A stretch of DNA of 61,480 nt from Sedimentisphaerales bacterium (GTDB lineage: Bacteria > Planctomycetota > Phycisphaerae > Sedimentisphaerales > SM23-30): NCBI GenBank assembly GCA_963663965.2, contig CAXXFK010000008.1, forward strand, positions 1 through 61,480. The letters run 5' to 3'. The notes under the pieces are model-generated. The model was not told the DNA's origin. It made no database searches and saw only the letters and a list, made by a program, of their open reading frames with translations. The stretch's first letter is position 1, and each line of letters opens with the position of its first letter. Positions 40,289-53,935 of this stretch are shown here, piece after piece. A program made the position numbers and the translations under genes.

Positions 40289-40655
40289 AGCTTCGTTTGA
40301 TCATTGGACAATTTAAGCCTGTCCTTTCCCATTTTTATTATCTATAGACGGAGAAATTGACGGTTTGTTACCAAAAAAAGAAACTCTGATACCTGCAAAT
40401 TCTTGTGAAATACAGATATCGATATTAAATAGAATTATGGGAAAGTCAAGCATTAACGTTTTAAAACATCAGTATTTACTGCAATAATACCCTGCGATTA
40501 ACTTCAAATTTAACTAAGACTCGTGTTGAAAAATAGCGAAAATAGGTAATATGGAAAAAGCTTTGTGCTTGGCAATCTCATTAATCGGGATGACGACGTG
40601 AATTATTTCATTCAAAACCGTCTTAATTATGCTTACAATTTTAATTAACTATGTT

Positions 40656-41459
40656 ATGAGAAAACGAATTGTAAACTTTATTGAAGATTTCGGCAGTTTT
40701 TGGCGATTTGCCTGGTTTGTTCTCCTAGCACCGGTTATTACCGGACGCACCCGCCCCATGCCTGGCCGTAACCACTTATGGGCACAGATGTTCGAAATTG
40801 GTATCAAAAGCGTTCCGGTTGTTATGATTACCGGTGCGTTTGTTGCGATGACCCTGGCGGTACAAAGTTATGGCCAGCTCTATGGGATGGGATTCGAAGA
40901 TCGTATGGGCAGTCTCATCAACCTTTCCGTTGTCAAGGAACTGGGCCCGGTGCTGGCTGCCTTTATGCTGGCCGGCCGGGTAGGGGGGGCTCTGACAGCC
41001 GAACTTGGCACCATGCGGGTGACTGAGCAGATTGATGCCGTTCGTTCTATCGGCGCGAATCCGCTCCGTTATCTGGTCTGGCCCCGCTTTATGGCCTGTG
41101 TTTTGCTCATGCCTTTTCTCACAATTTATGCCGACTTGATGGGAGTAATCGGCGGTTATGTCATCAGTGTGTTTTATTATAAGATCAATTCCGAGGCCTA
41201 TTGGCGATTCAGCGCCGATATCGTGCAGCTGTGGGATGTCGGGGTAGGTGTGGCCAAGAGCTTCTTTTTCGGCGCCAGTATCTCTCTCATCAGTTGCTTT
41301 AAGGGATTCCATTGCGACCGGGGCGCCCGGGGAGTGGGCAAGGCCTGCACAGAAGCGTTCGTCTATAGTTTTATAGCAATCCTGCTGTTAAATTTTGTAC
41401 TTGCCGTAATCACCAAAGCCATCTATGAAACCCTCTGGGATGTCCAGATTATTGTTTGA
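40656..41459 (+). CDS. mlaE: MlaE-family ABC permease (phospholipid/MCE transport)
   Basis: KELGPVLAAFMLAGRVGGALTAELGTMRVTEQIDA; GARGVGKACT. The ATG at 40656 is preferred over the TTG at 40629. Confidence 0.92.
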   Translation: MRKRIVNFIEDFGSFWRFAWFVLLAPVITGRTRPMPGRNHLWAQMFEIGIKSVPVVMITGAFVAMTLAVQSYGQLYGMGFEDRMGSLINLSVVKELGPVLAAFMLAGRVGGALTAELGTMRVTEQIDAVRSIGANPLRYLVWPRFMACVLLMPFLTIYADLMGVIGGYVISVFYYKINSEAYWRFSADIVQLWDVGVGVAKSFFFGASISLISCFKGFHCDRGARGVGKACTEAFVYSFIAILLLNFVLAVITKAIYETLWDVQIIV

Positions 41460-41462
41460 TTA

Positions 41463-42239
41463 ATGACCGAATCGACTCAACAAAACCTCTTTGAATTGTC
41501 AGCGATCCAAAAATCTTTTGGGGATACCAAGGTATTGACCAATTTTGATTTTGCCATTGAACGCGGTAAAACCACGGTAGTAATCGGTCCCAGTGGATGT
41601 GGTAAAACCGTGTTACTTAAACTGTTGATTCTCCTGTTGCGTCCGGACCGGGGCAAAGTGTTTTTTGATGGCCGGCGCATTGATCCTTTGCCCGAATCCC
41701 GGCTGGTGCCGGTGCGTGCCCGGTGTGGCTTTTTGTTTCAAGCCGGCGCGTTATTCGATTCCCAGACGGTTTTCGAGAATATCGCGTTTCCACTCTATCA
41801 GCATACGGATCACAGCCATGATGAAATTCGCCAGATTGTCCGCAATAAACTGCGCCTGGTGGCACTGGAACCGTTGGAAAACCGCTATCCGGCCGAACTT
41901 TCCGGTGGTCAGCAAAAACGTATTGCCCTGGCCCGGGCGATTGCTCTTTCACCCGAAGTGGTGCTCTACGACGAACCCACCACCGGCCTGGATCCCATCC
42001 GTTCGGATATTATTGGCGATTTGATCCTCAAGTTAAAAACCGAATTGAGAATCACTTCCGTTGTGGTGACGCATGATATGAAACTGGCCGCCAAGATCGG
42101 AGACCGGATCGTGATGATGAGCCAGGGCAGGATTATTGCGGATGGAACGGCGGATGAAATTTATCATAGTACAGATCCGGTGGTCCAGCAGTTTGTTCTG
42201 GGCCGGAGTGCTTTTGCCGGGGGAGTTCATCTGGATTAA
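41463..42239 (+). CDS. mlaF: MlaF-family ABC ATP-binding protein
   Basis: GPSGCGKT, FQAGALFDS, LSGGQQKR, LYDEPTTGLDP, VVTHD. Confidence 0.92.
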   Translation: MTESTQQNLFELSAIQKSFGDTKVLTNFDFAIERGKTTVVIGPSGCGKTVLLKLLILLLRPDRGKVFFDGRRIDPLPESRLVPVRARCGFLFQAGALFDSQTVFENIAFPLYQHTDHSHDEIRQIVRNKLRLVALEPLENRYPAELSGGQQKRIALARAIALSPEVVLYDEPTTGLDPIRSDIIGDLILKLKTELRITSVVVTHDMKLAAKIGDRIVMMSQGRIIADGTADEIYHSTDPVVQQFVLGRSAFAGGVHLD

Positions 42240-42268
42240 AGGCTGTATTGAAAATAAGGATAGTTATC

Positions 42269-43336
42269 ATGCCTAATGAAAGATTCAGAAATCAGATAGT
42301 CGGCTTGTTCATGTTGATCGGCCTGGTCGTGTTTGGCTGGCTGGTGATGCGTTTTGGCGATCTGCCCAGTATTGTCAGTCGGTATGATGCCAGAATAGTG
42401 ACGGTCTGGCTGCCTGAAACCGCCAATCTGAAAACCAACAGCCGGGTCGTTTTTCGGGGTTATACCGTCGGAAAAATTCTTTCGGTATCGCCGCCCGCGG
42501 CTTATGCCGATCCTGATCATCCGGATTCGACATTGTATGGGGTCAAACTGGAAGCGGCGGTTGCATCCTCAAACAAAGTGCCCGCCAATGTCACTGCCCG
42601 GGTTGTACGTGGCGGCCTGGGCGCCAGTTACCTTGAACTGGTCCTGGATCAGGCGCCATCTGAGGAACTATTAATCAGCGGTCAGCAGTTATACGGATCG
42701 ATTTCGATGACCAATCAATTTATCTCCGAAGATACCCAGAAAAAACTCGACAGTCTGATTGTTTCCATGACAACGTTGAGCGAAGCGATGCAGACTCAAC
42801 TGAAACCGTTGCCGCCCGACCAGCTCGATCCAGCCCGTGAGGTCTATGCGAACATGACGACTGCCGTGATGCGTCTGGATGAGGTGCTTAAACATTTCAA
42901 TACCATTCTGGGTGATCCTGACAACCAGAAAAATATTAAGGAAGCGATCACTTCGGTCCGGGATGCCGCGGACGGGATCCGTCAGACAGCCCGAAAAGCC
43001 GATCTCCTGCTTGAAGATGCCCATAAAATGGTGGATAGCGCAGATGAAACCGTTGCCGAAATCAAAACATCGGTAACCCGATTGACCGATACGTATCAAC
43101 AGGTGGGTGTTCATGCCAATGTGGCTCTTGATGAATTATCCGGGGCGTTGAACGAATCGCGAAAAATCCTGGCGGCCATCAATGCCGGTGAAGGCACCTT
43201 GGGCCAGTTGGCTACTGATTCCCGGCTTTATGAATCGTTTATCGATGTGAGCCAGCGGATCGAATTAACCATGAAAAGCATAGATGCCATCCTCCAGCAA
43301 TGGCAGCAGGATGGGGTGCGGATGAAACTGAAATAA
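42269..43336 (+). CDS. mlaD: MlaD/MCE-family protein with long helical C-terminus
   Basis: N-terminal TM VGLFMLIGLVVFGWL; LKTNSRVVFRGYTVGKI MCE motif; GEGTLGQL..D..LY. The ATG at 42269 is preferred. Confidence 0.85.
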   Translation: MPNERFRNQIVGLFMLIGLVVFGWLVMRFGDLPSIVSRYDARIVTVWLPETANLKTNSRVVFRGYTVGKILSVSPPAAYADPDHPDSTLYGVKLEAAVASSNKVPANVTARVVRGGLGASYLELVLDQAPSEELLISGQQLYGSISMTNQFISEDTQKKLDSLIVSMTTLSEAMQTQLKPLPPDQLDPAREVYANMTTAVMRLDEVLKHFNTILGDPDNQKNIKEAITSVRDAADGIRQTARKADLLLEDAHKMVDSADETVAEIKTSVTRLTDTYQQVGVHANVALDELSGALNESRKILAAINAGEGTLGQLATDSRLYESFIDVSQRIELTMKSIDAILQQWQQDGVRMKLK

Positions 43337-48446: not shown

Positions 48447-48846
48447 CATGTTGTAAATAAAAGAATTGTAAATATTCCCGGGTCGTTTTTAAGTAAAAAT
48501 ATCGAAATTTATATCCATGTTTCCATTTTTCATACGCTTTAGATTATGGAAAAAGAATAACGGGCCAAACCATAGAAAATTGAGGGCTAGGAAATCTCTT
48601 AGTCCGGAAGAGAGGGGACATCGAATCCCCTTCGATGTACTCTGGTGAGTTATTGCACACCGCTCGCTGGTCCGCCGCGTTTTTAGAATTCATAATGGTA
48701 GTAATGTATAACAGGATAGCAGGGTATCGTGTAAGAATCCGGGTTGTTATAGGCTGCTGTTTGGATAATAGTAGATATTTATATTTAGATATTCGCCCTG
48801 AAGGGTGGTATCATTGTAATAATCAAAAACCTGATTCTACCCAGAT

Positions 48847-50673
48847 GTGTATATGATCATCAGATATCTATTAGTTTTAATAACGGTTTGTATCCTGCCG
48901 AATGTTTCTCAGGCGGAAAAAGAACTTTCCCGAAATGAAATTCTGGCCATTTTTCGACATCTGACACAATCTCCCAGTCGCGGGTGGATCAATCAAGGCG
49001 TCATCCAAGCCCGTTATGAACAATATCGGGCGCCGGAGATCACCGATCCCAATAAACTGGAAGCCAGAATTAAACAAACTCAGGAAGCTTACCTGGGAAA
49101 TGAAAATAAAGCGGAACAGGCAGATTTCTGGCAGGAAGCGCGTTATAATGCCATCCCATTTAATATTCGCTATCAATTTGGCAATGAAGTTCGTAACGTA
49201 TCACGCGAGACAGTCTATTTTGATAATGGCCTTTATGTCTGGGATTATCAGGTGCTTTCTCGTGATGAAAGCATCAAACCGCCCCCAGACCAGAATGATA
49301 TGTATGAATTTTTTGACCTCAAAACAAATGGTCACAAAATATATCATTGGGATGGCAAGTATTATACGATTCAGTTCCCTTTGATTAATACCGCTCAGAT
49401 ATTTGAAAATGCCCTGGGGGTCATTCCGGTGGTTCATGGCCCGTTTAATGCAGAAAAAATCGCATGGGGCCAGAAATGGTATAGCTATGAATCCCTGGCT
49501 CAATTGCCTTTTAAAGGCGTCGAACAGGATGGCGACATTGAAATTACGGTTAAATTTAAAGAGGTGGACCGGGTGTTTGTCTTCGATAAAACCCGCGATT
49601 ATGCCCTGTTAAGCGTCGAAGCCTATTATCCTAAAGCAGAGGAAATGGATATTTGTCAATATAGTGATTACCAACTGTTTGATAAAAAATGGGTTCCCGG
49701 CCTGCTGCGTCTGGAATCCTATACCGGCAGTGGCGATAGCTTTAGATTAACGAAATCGGATACCTGGACTTTTGAAAAATATGAACCATTACCGGAAGAT
49801 TATCAATTTTCCGCACGGTTGCCTGCTGATACGTTGGTGCATTATCATCTGGGCAAGGGGAAAAATTTAAGCTACTACCAGAGCTATGGTATGTACGATT
49901 CGATGAGAATGCTGGAATTAAAAAAGGAGTTGAACACGTTGTCTGGACAGGTTGTGTACAATTGCGCTACCTCGTCTGTCCGTTATATGCTGGATCAATT
50001 CAAGGTAACAACGTATTATCAAGATTTGAAAAAACTGATTAATCGGGATAATACCTCGACACTCGATCAAATTTATCGATATTTATATGAAAGACGATAT
50101 TGGGTCAGGCCTGTTCTGGCAGACCTGTCTACCTTGATGGCATTGGATCATTGTCAGATTCTAATCAATTTTCCTGAAAATCATTTTTGTGTTCTGGGTG
50201 AATGTGATGACAACTACGTCCGATTGATTGATTTTCAACGCGATCATTTTTACTATCGTATCGATCGTCAACAATTTGAGCAGCAATGGAAACTGGGCGC
50301 GGCGTTGATCGTCGCTACTCAGGAGGTCGATATCCCCGATACGGTTCAATTACTCAATGAGTCCCAGATGAAATCGATTTATGGCGCCCAGGGGTATGCC
50401 TGCACCGGGTTATTGCAATCGTATACCGTATCGTTATGTCCTCCCATATGGCATGGACGTTCCAGCGGAAATTATCAGATTACTTACGAACGCTGGTATT
50501 GTCAACCGGCGGCTTCCGGGATCTGCCTCGAAGAAAACTATCCCATCTCATCCTGGTGTGAGTGCCTGTGTAATTATTTGGATCCCGATCAATGCAGTAT
50601 CACAGGAAAATGGGATACGGTATATAGATCCAGTATCACTATCGATAATATCACATACACGATCTGTCGTTAG
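48847..50673 (+). CDS. Secreted protein with C39-like cysteine peptidase domain, internal double-glycine-type leader motif and Cys-rich C-terminal peptide
   Basis: Signal peptide (VSQA-E); putative triad NCATSS (Cys codon 49963), NHFCVL (His 50182), LIDF (Asp 50230); FEQQWK helix; then LNESQMKSIYGA and a 94-aa tail with 9 Cys. The start may be the ATG at 48853. Confidence 0.7.
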   Translation: MYMIIRYLLVLITVCILPNVSQAEKELSRNEILAIFRHLTQSPSRGWINQGVIQARYEQYRAPEITDPNKLEARIKQTQEAYLGNENKAEQADFWQEARYNAIPFNIRYQFGNEVRNVSRETVYFDNGLYVWDYQVLSRDESIKPPPDQNDMYEFFDLKTNGHKIYHWDGKYYTIQFPLINTAQIFENALGVIPVVHGPFNAEKIAWGQKWYSYESLAQLPFKGVEQDGDIEITVKFKEVDRVFVFDKTRDYALLSVEAYYPKAEEMDICQYSDYQLFDKKWVPGLLRLESYTGSGDSFRLTKSDTWTFEKYEPLPEDYQFSARLPADTLVHYHLGKGKNLSYYQSYGMYDSMRMLELKKELNTLSGQVVYNCATSSVRYMLDQFKVTTYYQDLKKLINRDNTSTLDQIYRYLYERRYWVRPVLADLSTLMALDHCQILINFPENHFCVLGECDDNYVRLIDFQRDHFYYRIDRQQFEQQWKLGAALIVATQEVDIPDTVQLLNESQMKSIYGAQGYACTGLLQSYTVSLCPPIWHGRSSGNYQITYERWYCQPAASGICLEENYPISSWCECLCNYLDPDQCSITGKWDTVYRSSITIDNITYTICR

Positions 50674-50904: not shown

Positions 50905-51756
50905 ATGATACTTCGACAATCCAGGCGGGGCTTTGGCCTGTTTGAACTTGTGCTGGTTCTGATAATACTGGCTGTTCTATTTACGGTCATTGTTACCGCG
51001 ATGGATACATTACGCCAGAATGGTCAGACTACATCCTGCATCAACCAGATCAGACGAATTGCCGACAGTATGTCCCAATATGATCAGAATTATAGTTCGT
51101 TTCCCTGGGCTTTTAATGATGATGCCTCCTTTCTGATTGCCGGCAAACCTCCGGGAGGTTTTCTGGGAAATGCTTCCTATGATCGTATGGGGTGGTGGTG
51201 GCAGAATTTTCTCTCCCCTTATAGCGGAGTCGATGATTTCTATGAAGATAGCATTTTTCGATGTCCATCCCGTAATATTGTTGAAAATAACCTGAAAAAT
51301 CCTCTCTGGGGCAATTACGGGGTTAACCAGATGATCTGTAAATCTGCCCTGGAACCCGGCAACCGGGCTCATCTGGCTGGGAATCCTCTGGGGAGTCAAT
51401 TACTGCCGGCGCCGGCCCGTCTGGTCCTGATGGCGGATTGCGGTTATAATATGATCAATTGGGCTCATGTAACCAATAAGCCGCCTTATGAATTCGGCAA
51501 TCTTATCGAAGATCAGGCTTATCTGCCCGGTTTGATTATTTCGGATTACGAAACCGGATCCGTTTCTCCCAAAAAATTTCCCCAGTTTGTTAATGATGTG
51601 TCTGGCAGGCATGAGAATCAGAAAATCAATATTCTGTATGGCGATGGTCATGTCAAAACCGAACCTGCGGAATCTCTGAGAGTGACCTGGAAAGATGGAG
51701 TCTATGACCGGTTGGAAGCCTGGGTAGCGGATCCGGCCCGTCCGAAAGGGCGCTAA
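50905..51756 (+). CDS. Prepilin-type N-terminal cleavage/methylation protein with H-X9-DG-like motif (planctomycete pseudopilin)
   Basis: RRGFGLFELVLVLIILAVL; CINQIRRI; FRCPS; NYGVN; RHENQKINILYGDGHV (H-X10-DG). Confidence 0.88.
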   Translation: MILRQSRRGFGLFELVLVLIILAVLFTVIVTAMDTLRQNGQTTSCINQIRRIADSMSQYDQNYSSFPWAFNDDASFLIAGKPPGGFLGNASYDRMGWWWQNFLSPYSGVDDFYEDSIFRCPSRNIVENNLKNPLWGNYGVNQMICKSALEPGNRAHLAGNPLGSQLLPAPARLVLMADCGYNMINWAHVTNKPPYEFGNLIEDQAYLPGLIISDYETGSVSPKKFPQFVNDVSGRHENQKINILYGDGHVKTEPAESLRVTWKDGVYDRLEAWVADPARPKGR

Positions 51757-51765
51757 TCATGATTG

Positions 51766-53379
51766 CTAGGGTGTTAAGTCATCTTTGAATCCCAGCGCTT
51801 CGATACGAGCCTGGAATTCGTTTTCCGTCAGTTGGGTTAGAACCAGATATTCTTTCATGCGATAATGATTGATTGCTGAGGCGCGAAAATAGTATTCATA
51901 GCGTATCGGGACCTGAGAGTATTTATCCAGGTAAATCCGGTATTTATAAGCAGATGAACCCGTTTGGTCCAGCGGAATCGTCATTTCAAAGACGTCGGTC
52001 TGGTTGTCTGTCTGTTCGATTCGGATGATATCCGCGTTATATTGATGGGCGATCCGGGCAAAGTCCCGTTCAAAACCGGCGCAGTCATTCATTTGTGCGC
52101 GAAACAAGCGGAGGTCATCTTCTTTGATCTGGGAAATGACAGTTGCCTGATTCTTTGGTAAGGTGACAACTTGTCTGTTTTTCAGATCCCGGTATAACCG
52201 TTCATTCTGATTTATGATATAATAACAGTCATGTACGCGATCGATTAGAGTCTCTTCGGTGAGAGTGCCCAGTTCTGCGTCAAAATGTTCAACTTTTAAT
52301 AGTGGCAGCGTATTGATAATCCGGTTAATCTCATCCGGATTAATAGCGCGCACATCCTGATTCATGAAAATAGTAAAGCCGAATATCACCGCTGCCGCCG
52401 CAGCCGTAGTCATACCCAGTAACCAGCCACGTCGGGTGATAGCTGCCTGGGAGGGTGATGGTTGACGGTTCGGTTTTCTTGGTTCTTTCGGTTCCGGCTC
52501 AATAAATTCAATTTCCAGCGGTGGAGAGTCCAACCGGTCATGTCGCGCCAGCCGGCTGACGGTGATTTTCGGGGAGTCATTGTCTTTGAAGAAATTAAAT
52601 AATTCCAGATACAATAATTGTAATCGGGAATAGCATGCCGGACAATGGGCAAGATGCCGGACATTGTCCGCAGGAACATCAGATTTCGCTTCAGAAAAAT
52701 CATCAGGTAAAATTAAATCAAACAGTTGTGAGTCATTGAAACATTCAGTTGACAACGTGTTAGCGTGAACCAGTTTGAGACGATTCTTCTCCAGAAATTC
52801 AAATAAACTTTGAAAACAATCCGGACAATGCATGGTATGTATCAGGATTTCCGGTTTTAACGGCAGAAAATCCTGGCTGTTCATTGAGTGGATGATTTGC
52901 TTCAAGTCGGCGCAGGCAACCGGTTTATGGCGGTGACTCGGCGCGCCAGCCAACAGTTGATTCAGATGCTGAAGTTGCCCGATCGAAAAGTTTCTCAGGC
53001 GCAACCAGCTTAAACGATCCCGGCAATGTTTGCATTTTTCGATATGGGCGGTAATGGGGGTCTGAATCCGCATGGCCAGTTGCGGCAATAGCAGGGATGG
53101 CATGAAAAAGCGAACAATCCGGCAGTCGACCGGCTTGTTCAGATAGCCGTAATGCATTTGCACCGAACGTATCCATTGATTGTTTTGTGGATAGCCGTTA
53201 CTGCGCGGAATAGTATGGCCGACGATGTTGGCGATTCGTTGCGATTTATGACGGCATTCAAGACAGCGCTCGATATGGTCACATACCGGCTCCGGAACGT
53301 GACCCCGATCGATCGGATTATAATAATCCAGATAATAGGGTTGTGCTTCCAGGCACGAAGTCTTAGCAATAGGTTTCAT
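51766..53379 (-). CDS. Putative membrane anti-sigma factor with four tandem zf-HC2-like repeats and a periplasmic beta-rich domain
   Basis: HIERCLEC, HIEKCKHC, HTMHCPDC, HLAHCPAC, each preceded by an upstream Cys; single TM; start overlaps the ECF sigma 3' end. Confidence 0.75.
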   Translation of the reverse strand: MKPIAKTSCLEAQPYYLDYYNPIDRGHVPEPVCDHIERCLECRHKSQRIANIVGHTIPRSNGYPQNNQWIRSVQMHYGYLNKPVDCRIVRFFMPSLLLPQLAMRIQTPITAHIEKCKHCRDRLSWLRLRNFSIGQLQHLNQLLAGAPSHRHKPVACADLKQIIHSMNSQDFLPLKPEILIHTMHCPDCFQSLFEFLEKNRLKLVHANTLSTECFNDSQLFDLILPDDFSEAKSDVPADNVRHLAHCPACYSRLQLLYLELFNFFKDNDSPKITVSRLARHDRLDSPPLEIEFIEPEPKEPRKPNRQPSPSQAAITRRGWLLGMTTAAAAAVIFGFTIFMNQDVRAINPDEINRIINTLPLLKVEHFDAELGTLTEETLIDRVHDCYYIINQNERLYRDLKNRQVVTLPKNQATVISQIKEDDLRLFRAQMNDCAGFERDFARIAHQYNADIIRIEQTDNQTDVFEMTIPLDQTGSSAYKYRIYLDKYSQVPIRYEYYFRASAINHYRMKEYLVLTQLTENEFQARIEALGFKDDLTP

Positions 53380-53935
53380 CCAGACAATCGCCTCCCGGTT
53401 CGATGATTTCCCTGATTTTTCGCAGCCCTAACGAAATATATTTTGAAACGGTAGCCCGGCTTACTCCCATGCTCTGGGCTATTTTTTTTATATCGTTCTT
53501 ACGGCGGTAGCGCCGGATAATCGCTTCCGATTGACATCTGGGCAAATGGTTTTCCATGTAGGCCAGGATCTGATCGATTTGGCGATTTTCCCGGTCTTGA
53601 TCTTCTTCCTGTTCGAGCGCACAGAAAGTATAATCGTACCGTTTATTTTTAATGTTACAAAAATCATCTAATACCTGGCGATAACGCTGGTCCCGCCGGT
53701 AATAGTCAATGATTTGATTGCTGATGGCCCGGTAGAGATAGGCTTTGATATCGCCTTGGGTTATTTTCAGGGGATTGATGCTGGTCGAAAGAAAAAAATC
53801 CTGGTAGATATCATCGATGTCGGCTGAATGATTAGCCAGCTTTCTGATTACGTAACGAATAAATTCGCCATAATTCTTAAAAAGCTCGTTAGCGTCATAA
53901 TATTGGGGAATTGGGTTACAGGGCGAAGCGATCAC
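53363..53935 (-). CDS. ECF RNA polymerase sigma-70 factor
   Basis: DIDDIYQDFFL, AYLYRAISNQIIDYYRR, LPRCQSEAI, IAQSMGVSRATVSKYISLGLRKIR. Confidence 0.9.
   Translation of the reverse strand: MIASPCNPIPQYYDANELFKNYGEFIRYVIRKLANHSADIDDIYQDFFLSTSINPLKITQGDIKAYLYRAISNQIIDYYRRDQRYRQVLDDFCNIKNKRYDYTFCALEQEEDQDRENRQIDQILAYMENHLPRCQSEAIIRRYRRKNDIKKIAQSMGVSRATVSKYISLGLRKIREIIEPGGDCLDETYC

Follow-up and report, generated by a model that had tools for sequence, protein, structure and literature searches.

A C39-type peptidase fused to a double-glycine-type leader and a cysteine-rich tail in Sedimentisphaerales: a candidate self-processing system outside the inner membrane

The locus and its genes

The window analyzed here, a stretch of 61,480 nucleotides from a Sedimentisphaerales bacterium, carries on its forward strand an intact open reading frame at 48847/48853-50673, for which a GTG start at 48847 gives 608 aa and an ATG start at 48853 gives 606 aa. 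Residue numbers follow the 606-aa ATG form, the start used in the protein collection. From its N-terminus the protein starts with what is likely a Sec signal, continues with a LolA-like domain and then a C39 peptidase, and ends in the leader LNESQMKSIYGA followed by a Cys-rich tail. Searches with the 606-aa protein returned no matching NCBIfam model and no significant match among PDB sequences. The AlphaFold2 model of the whole protein, built on a 143-row alignment, is a rigid arrangement of three domains (pLDDT 93.1, pTM 0.91). The likely signal peptide (aa 1-21, 48853..48915, + strand; alternative GTG start at 48847) is assigned from sequence and ends in SQA. A signal-like start, scored by a simple rule (a hydrophobic core, then a small residue ahead of the point where the conserved mature part begins) without a signal-peptide predictor, is present in 215 of the 224 relatives with sufficient N-terminal sequence. 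This lends computational support to the Sec export proposed in a preliminary description of the locus, and the chain very likely takes that route.

The next gene downstream (50905..51756, + strand) encodes a prepilin-like protein of the DUF1559 type, designated the predicted acceptor of the tail on the basis of profiles, gene order, and covariation. Its N_methyl and DUF1559 scores fall just under the Pfam cut-offs (19.4 against 21.2 and 22.9 against 23.3, respectively); it reaches the cut-off of TIGR02532, and two relatives lie above that of DUF1559. On the opposite strand follow a predicted anti-sigma factor (51766..53379, - strand) and an ECF-type sigma factor (53363..53935, - strand). The former, assigned from sequence and gene order, has a Cys/His-rich cytoplasmic part, one membrane helix, and a periplasmic domain encoded at 52362-51769, and gave no family match above cut-off; the latter matches the Pfam Sigma70_r2/r4 and TIGR02937 models above cut-off. 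Upstream of the peptidase gene lies tilS, and the 400-base gap before the gene (48447-48846) contains a short inverted repeat near 48612-48642 (GAGGGGACATCGAA ... TTCGATGTACTCT). The window has about as many promoter and terminator matches as chance would give. Elsewhere in the window, a three-gene operon that resembles MlaE/MlaF/MlaD-type ABC systems, labeled by sequence appearance, occupies 40629-43336 (+ strand).

Distribution and gene neighborhood

The fused architecture is real and order-wide. Of 301 genomes from the source order, 174 match a two-sequence profile of the family, including 127 of the 189 of high quality; the profile matched 237 representatives at 50% identity, and there is mostly one copy per genome. 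In a sample of the phylum the tail profile found a match in 7 of the 9 genomes from the order and in none of the 392 from outside it, and a profile of this C39 clade gave a single, weak match among 174 out-of-order genomes of the same class.

Gene order was compared across 76 loci (a few genomes being represented twice), 65 of which have enough downstream sequence. Among these 65, the prepilin-like DUF1559-type gene is next downstream in 55 and absent beside the protease gene in 10; an opposite-strand anti-sigma gene lies downstream in 55 and an ECF sigma gene in 52. A gene for a secreted protein bearing a dockerin or PEP-CTERM end lies upstream in 50 of the 65. This upstream partner (L033:3168-3860, L040:4956-5507, and equivalents) has one conserved secreted domain, mostly with a dockerin end, and a PEP-CTERM-like motif in L040. 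The window locus has all three downstream cassette genes, and the upstream partner is not beside its peptidase gene; a profile of the partner's N-terminal part found only a match at E 1e-4 in this genome, which is 94.6% complete. A WYL/WCX transcription regulator flanks the cassette on either side at 22 of the 76 loci (L033:9584-10588 and 21 others), and had no match in the source genome. No small immunity-type gene is conserved in the cassette across 43 loci, and a simple word count upstream of the operon recovered only a sigma-70-like TTGA element as a shared promoter motif. Two loci show disrupted cassettes, with broken pilin-like and anti-sigma frames in the region L059:3400-5600 and a masked, split protease gene in L077.

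The peptidase and its leader

The peptidase domain (aa 369-490, 49957..50322, + strand) is assigned by Pfam, VIA, and conservation. It matches Peptidase_C39 (PF03412), scoring 33.5 bits where the cut-off is 22 (E 4e-8), and the same profile is matched by 65 of 65 aligned family members at E<=0.1. The codons of the catalytic triad begin at 49963 (C371), 50182 (H444), and 50230 (D460) on the + strand. Conservation was counted among 232 distinct full-length relatives, selected by length and by a final 100 residues with six or more Cys; all 232 have C371 and H444, and 228 have D460. The 143-row alignment, picked by length and coverage and including six duplicates, gives the same picture for triad, leader, and tail. 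The modeled domain has a papain-like fold, with 128 residues aligned to LahT (6mpz) by VIA at Z 11.1 and rmsd 2.7; over the peptidase domains of PCAT/AMS transporters (LahT, ComA, PCAT1), model residues 348-492 score Z 10.6-11.1 with rmsd 2.5-2.7, and Foldseek matches the domain to ComA (5xe9) with E 7.5e-5. Position 365, where a Gln six residues before the catalytic Cys would serve as the proposed oxyanion residue, is variable in the family alignment. This Gln is not essential to C39 membership, because in LahT it is 4.3 A away and a His may serve instead, according to the part of that structural report available (PMC6363468). By profile, triad, and fold the peptidase is thus a member of C39, as the preliminary description had it, and proteolytic activity is predicted. 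One relative already bears the database name cysteine peptidase family C39 domain-containing protein, and another (P0087, 804 aa) has an active C39 followed by a second copy without the catalytic Cys, then leader and tail.

A short linker (50323..50352, + strand), delimited by the spacing in relatives, connects the protease to the leader LNESQMKSIYGA (50353..50388, + strand), for which conservation and a helix in the model predict a cut after A512. By its motif and hydrophobic positions this segment is a double-glycine-type leader whose cleavage is predicted; the coordinates and the L, M, and I at -12, -7, and -4 agree with those first described (L501, M506, and I509, followed by G511 and A512). 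Conservation of the GA motif in homologs, on which that description had made its reading depend, is also found, with Gly at -2 in 225 of 232 relatives and G[GAS] in 205; the remaining 27 have a residue other than G, A, or S after the Gly, or lack the Gly. Hydrophobic residues (L, I, V, M, or A) occupy -12 in 224, -7 in 182, and -4 in 205 of the 232 relatives, and 30 have Gln at -7. Hydrophobic residues at these positions with a GG, GA, or GS end constitute the rule for ComA and LahT in the portion of the source available (PMC10885120). The full pattern occurs in 141 of 232 relatives; at G[GAS] sites elsewhere in these proteins it occurs in 56 of 1381 (4%). In 137 distinct relatives, 9-16 residues separate -12 from the last protease strand, and from the predicted cut site to the first tail Cys the distance varies from 3 to 9 residues, with indels clustering right after the GG. 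The fixed leader spacing together with these variable 3-9 residues behind the cut site therefore fits the expectation for a cleavage boundary.

In the model the leader forms a helix over 503-508 (-10 to -5), with pLDDT 96 over 501-510. The leader bound to LahT is a two-turn helix from -11 to -4, in the available part of that report (PMC6363468), and because the model helix matches it the leader may be expected to dock in the protease groove. Covariation between leader and protease was absent (0 of 2002 pairs above z 5.5). Searched against 59,355 six-frame segments of the bacterium's own genome, the leader profile matched only the gene at 48853-50673 (E 2e-5; next 0.89), and thus revealed no second leader-bearing protein there. 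No PCAT was found in the source genome, and a PCAT-derived profile matched in it only a 299-aa membrane C39 encoded elsewhere. This second C39 (L002:1093-1992, G000:C35) has N-terminal membrane helices and no ABC domains; the gene beside it looks like that of an S49-type peptidase.

The LolA-like domain, the tail, and their candidate partners

The N-terminal domain (aa 22-344, 48916..49884, + strand), a predicted holder of the tail, is assigned by Foldseek, VIA, and covariation. Residues 22-344 match LolA3, LolB, and LolA-superfamily structures by Foldseek with E 6e-7, and by VIA with Z 11.1-11.9 and rmsd 5.2-5.3 over 194-214 aligned residues. The domain shares the open beta half-barrel that defines the LolA/LolB superfamily (9tp6, 9tpm, 3bk5, 3buu, 4z48), although identity to its members is about 10% and the rmsd exceeds 5. 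Two proteins (P0143, P0144) are related to this domain alone; P0143 lacks a protease and ends in a membrane helix.

The tail (50389-50670; 50389..50673 with the stop codon, + strand) has 94 aa and nine Cys, as originally described, with a mass of about 10.7 kDa and a pI of 4.75. It is the predicted cargo, an all-beta domain assigned from its eight-Cys family and its model (pLDDT 93). In alignments the tails of all relatives form one family on a fixed eight-Cys frame with no other domain swapped in; the median tail has 83 aa and a net charge of -4, aromatic residues make up 16%, and eight or nine Cys occur in 58 of 64. The Cys filter of the 232-protein set favors Cys-rich tails, and the 143-row set, which lacks that filter, shows one tail family too. 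The window tail lacks one of the eight conserved Cys, the third position being Ser537, and has two extra ones. Because alignments differ on whether C571 or C573 is the conserved Cys, residue labels within 563-575 are uncertain by two. Among close relatives the tail is the fastest-diverging part of the protein, with a non-Cys identity of 0.56 against 0.72 for the N-terminal domain and 0.76 for the protease. The expectation of a conserved leader and a variable tail therefore holds for the leader and fails for the tail, and the suggested toxin is not borne out by a single conserved family whose cargo is never swapped; a variable toxin tail was rejected on the grounds of this one family across 232 proteins.

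Modeled alone, the tail forms long beta-hairpins and no helices (pLDDT 92.9). Its profile found no match among PDB sequences, Foldseek gave none at E<=0.001 against the PDB and viral models, an ESM Atlas search gave none, and no stand-alone tail relative of 43-165 aa was found. The best VIA match reached Z 3.7, and the weak rows, which include a pilus-like filament and gasdermin-type pores, are not usable. The missing structural matches may reflect a new fold, which they fit without proving.

Covariation was used to rank partners, binding itself being predicted, since the alignments are shallow and kin are not independent. Within the protein (232 rows), five of the 17 strongest pairs join the N-terminal domain to the tail; z exceeds 6.5 in 5 of 23,408 such pairs, 2 of 44,035 between N-terminal domain and C39, 0 of 10,868 between C39 and tail, and 0 of 2002 between C39 and leader. 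For partner comparisons the statistic was fixed as the mean of the top five z, with true pairing set against shuffles. The tail scored 7.45 with the N-terminal domain (4.87-6.29 in 8 shuffles), 7.44 with the pilin-like protein (5.35-6.77 in 14 shuffles; 122 pairs), and 6.34 with the periplasmic domain of the anti-sigma factor (4.78-6.10 in 14 shuffles; 120 pairs), a smaller margin than that of the pilin-like protein; with C39 it scored 4.38, below every shuffle (4.44-5.26). Against the first half of the pilin-like domain, a half selected after the signal was seen, it reached 6.79, above 40 random and 40 near-neighbor swaps (maxima 5.99 and 5.91); the best single pair (z 8.1) was beaten by 1 of 40 random shuffles, and the clustering was matched in 2 of 40 and 3 of 40. 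The predicted contact patch pairs tail residues 541-546 and 580-586 with residues 70-72 and 87-95 of the pilin-like protein, whose periplasmic domain is encoded at 51004-51753. Partial correlation of pairwise distances favors the anti-sigma periplasmic domain (0.29 vs. 0.17). The N-terminal domain itself covaries with the pilin-like protein (z 10.0 and 9.2, against shuffled maxima of 6.7-8.2 in 4 shuffles). Rates of evolution across 49 taxa gave rho 0.41 for the control (N-terminal part of the anti-sigma factor against the sigma factor), rho 0.30 for the tail against the first half of the pilin-like domain (p 0.003, which fails correction over 55 pairs), and no covariation of the tail with its own N-terminal domain or protease (rho -0.02 to -0.07) or with the two halves of the anti-sigma periplasmic domain (rho 0.08 and 0.12). 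Covariation ties the tail to the LolA-like domain and to the pilin-like protein, to a smaller extent to the anti-sigma factor, and not to the protease. For the LolA-like domain this suggests a protein cargo; fold and covariation together are carrier-like, in line with the carrier role first proposed.

Split operons in other Planctomycetota

Twenty non-transporter C39 loci on long contigs of other Planctomycetota were inspected, 19 from the 150 matches listed and one from a separate class search. A pattern scan yielded candidate precursors in 6 of the 20 loci; one (L188:8873-9469) was left out of the count because its "leader" is presumably the hydrophobic core of a lipoprotein-type signal, leaving six precursors in 5 of 20 loci. 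Each of the six has a signal, a leader, and a Cys-rich core and is encoded separately from C39; the operons (L184:6299-10002, L170:5625-9449, L171:6125-9587, L172:6831-10211, L169:5481-9541) comprise a precursor, a C39 gene, and one or two genes of 370-470 aa for membrane-anchored proteins. The leader profile, built from the fused family only, places four of the six at the top of 1067 ORFs (E 6e-6 to 0.035); the other two it misses, and the cores differ from the fused tail. With the same leader on separate precursors, the split operons support the leader/C39 interpretation. Among the six membrane-anchored neighbors one matches the N-domain profile (E 0.014) and none a Pfam family, so that the LolA-like label for these proteins is tentative. 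The C39 of split operons may be fused to DUF1573 or, as in L172, to N_methyl and DUF1559; L170 has two tandem precursors, and L184 a MauE-domain gene upstream.

Comparison with known systems

The system resembles a PCAT peptidase with its precursor, yet it is not a PCAT, a bacteriocin system, or a polymorphic toxin. A class II bacteriocin or microcin system has a small separate precursor, a dedicated exporter, and an immunity gene; none of these is conserved in the 43 loci, and here the chain is fused. With the C39 domains of PCAT/AMS transporters (LahT, ComA, PCAT1) the window protein shares fold, Cys-His-Asp triad, leader pattern, and short helix. The transporters, however, act in the cytoplasm on a separate precursor, while the window protein likely acts after Sec export with leader and cargo behind the enzyme in the same chain; it also has a LolA-like domain attached, and its family does not conserve the Gln at Cys-6. 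ABC transmembrane and ATPase domains are absent from the 606-aa protein by Pfam and by model. C39 is described as fused to ABC transporters in the accessible part of a survey of the papain superfamily (PMC10318531).

A precedent for a periplasmic C39 with a signal peptide and without a transporter is FapD of the Pseudomonas functional amyloid system, in which the catalytic Cys is needed (PMC5557850, as far as its accessible sections go). FapD stands alone and, in those same sections, its putative target has no canonical leader (PMC5557850), whereas the window substrate is fused and has one; the window cassette, unlike FapD's system, also includes pilin-like, anti-sigma, and sigma genes. In self-processing polymorphic toxins a peptidase (HINT, caspase-like, or papain-like) lies, as here, just before the C-terminal domain that it would release; in the portion of that survey available, C39-like domains are listed as toxin domains and not as releasing enzymes (PMC3482391). 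Such toxins have interchangeable C-terminal domains and adjacent immunity genes, whereas the window cargo belongs to one conserved family with no swapped tips and no immunity gene. The architecture was not found described in the literature searched, subscription journals lying outside its scope; the supplements of two surveys (PMC10318531, PMC3482391) could list such proteins.

Proposed mechanism and alternatives

In the proposed sequence of events the chain would be exported by Sec, and its tail would fold and make four disulfides while held by the LolA-like domain, which covariation and the rigid model make probable. Next, the leader helix would dock into the groove of the protease, and the chain would be cleaved behind A512. 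Such self-cleavage after Gly511-Ala512, a one-shot event outside the inner membrane, is likely by analogy with the LahT/ComA rule. The cut is probably made in cis, because the tether is 9-16 residues long, and the enzyme is probably single-use, because the leader stays tethered. The freed domain of roughly 10 kDa, with QGYAC at its new N-terminus and a remainder of about 58 kDa left behind, would bind the periplasmic domain of the DUF1559-type prepilin-like neighbor; given cleavage, gene order and covariation put this step at about an even chance. Bound there, the tail could cap a pilus-like surface module, or act as its ligand, with the module tied to the ECF sigma/anti-sigma pair. The full reading, self-cleavage followed by hand-over of the tail to the pilin-like protein, is put forward tentatively, at somewhat under an even chance.

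The alternatives that retain self-cleavage differ in the fate of the tail. It may serve as a signal to the periplasmic domain of the anti-sigma factor and turn on the ECF sigma factor in a pheromone-like loop, an idea encouraged by an anti-sigma gene downstream in 55 of 65 loci, kept even in two without the pilin-like gene (L037, L055), by tail-anti-sigma covariation above all 14 shuffles with the partial correlation of 0.29, and by the fast divergence of the tail (0.56 vs. 0.72-0.76 identity). The margin of that covariation is nevertheless below that of the pilin-like protein and its top pairs are scattered, rates do not covary with either anti-sigma periplasmic half, and the operon has no common ECF-type promoter motif, all of which leaves the signaling role unlikely. 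It is also quite unlikely that the cut is for maturation only, with the tail either kept by the LolA-like domain, giving a protein of two chains, or freed to polymerize as the subunit of a surface fiber. The rigid model (pTM 0.91), the covariation of tail and N-terminal domain (the strongest between domains), the predicted long beta-hairpins without helices, and the service of FapD in fiber export fit this, but it leaves the tail-pilin-like covariation to explain, tail rates are uncoupled from those of the N-terminal domain and protease, and the precursor of split operons has a gene to itself.

If the leader were instead never cut, it could act as a self-inhibiting pseudo-substrate and the tail as a sensor, whose displacement would free the protease to cleave a different protein, for instance the anti-sigma factor. 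A multi-turnover enzyme would also keep its triad invariant, and 27 of 232 relatives do without G[GAS]. A Gly at -2 in 225 of 232 with a mostly small residue at -1, however, is what a cut site requires, indels gather just behind that site, the genome encodes no further leader-bearing protein, and the same leader is found elsewhere on free precursors beside C39 genes; a pseudo-substrate is distinctly improbable. Release of the tail as a bacteriocin or toxin against other cells is very improbable: bacteriocins often carry double-glycine leaders, 22 of 76 loci have a WYL regulator nearby, and the order of protease then cargo recalls self-releasing toxins, but 232 proteins share a single tail family with cargo never swapped, the tail is acidic (median charge -4), and the cassette, mostly present once per genome, has no conserved small immunity-type gene. 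The reading preferred here is thus self-cleavage with transfer of the tail to the pilin-like neighbor.

Implications

The pair of C39 and double-glycine leader is taught as the cytoplasmic step of ABC-dependent peptide export. Here it appears to act after Sec export, in one chain, across most of an order, with split versions of the system elsewhere in the phylum, and a new form of double-glycine/C39 processing, with a route to a pilin-linked maturation system, is plausible. The protein offers a naturally stand-alone C39 enzyme, and the proposed reading names a substrate for a periplasmic C39 and puts the expected cut at a single defined bond, with a product of 10 kDa. On a broader view, which is possible and somewhat doubtful, Planctomycetota would have, beyond the inner membrane, a double-glycine pathway that works without a transporter, in which C39 enzymes mature disulfide-rich domains held by LolA-like proteins and load them onto DUF1559 pilin-like proteins; the source order would have fused carrier, enzyme, leader, and cargo, the last of a fold without a solved relative, into a single-use chain. 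The reading also points to a candidate ligand for a DUF1559 pilin-like protein and, if true, would for the first time give this large family a member with a specific partner.
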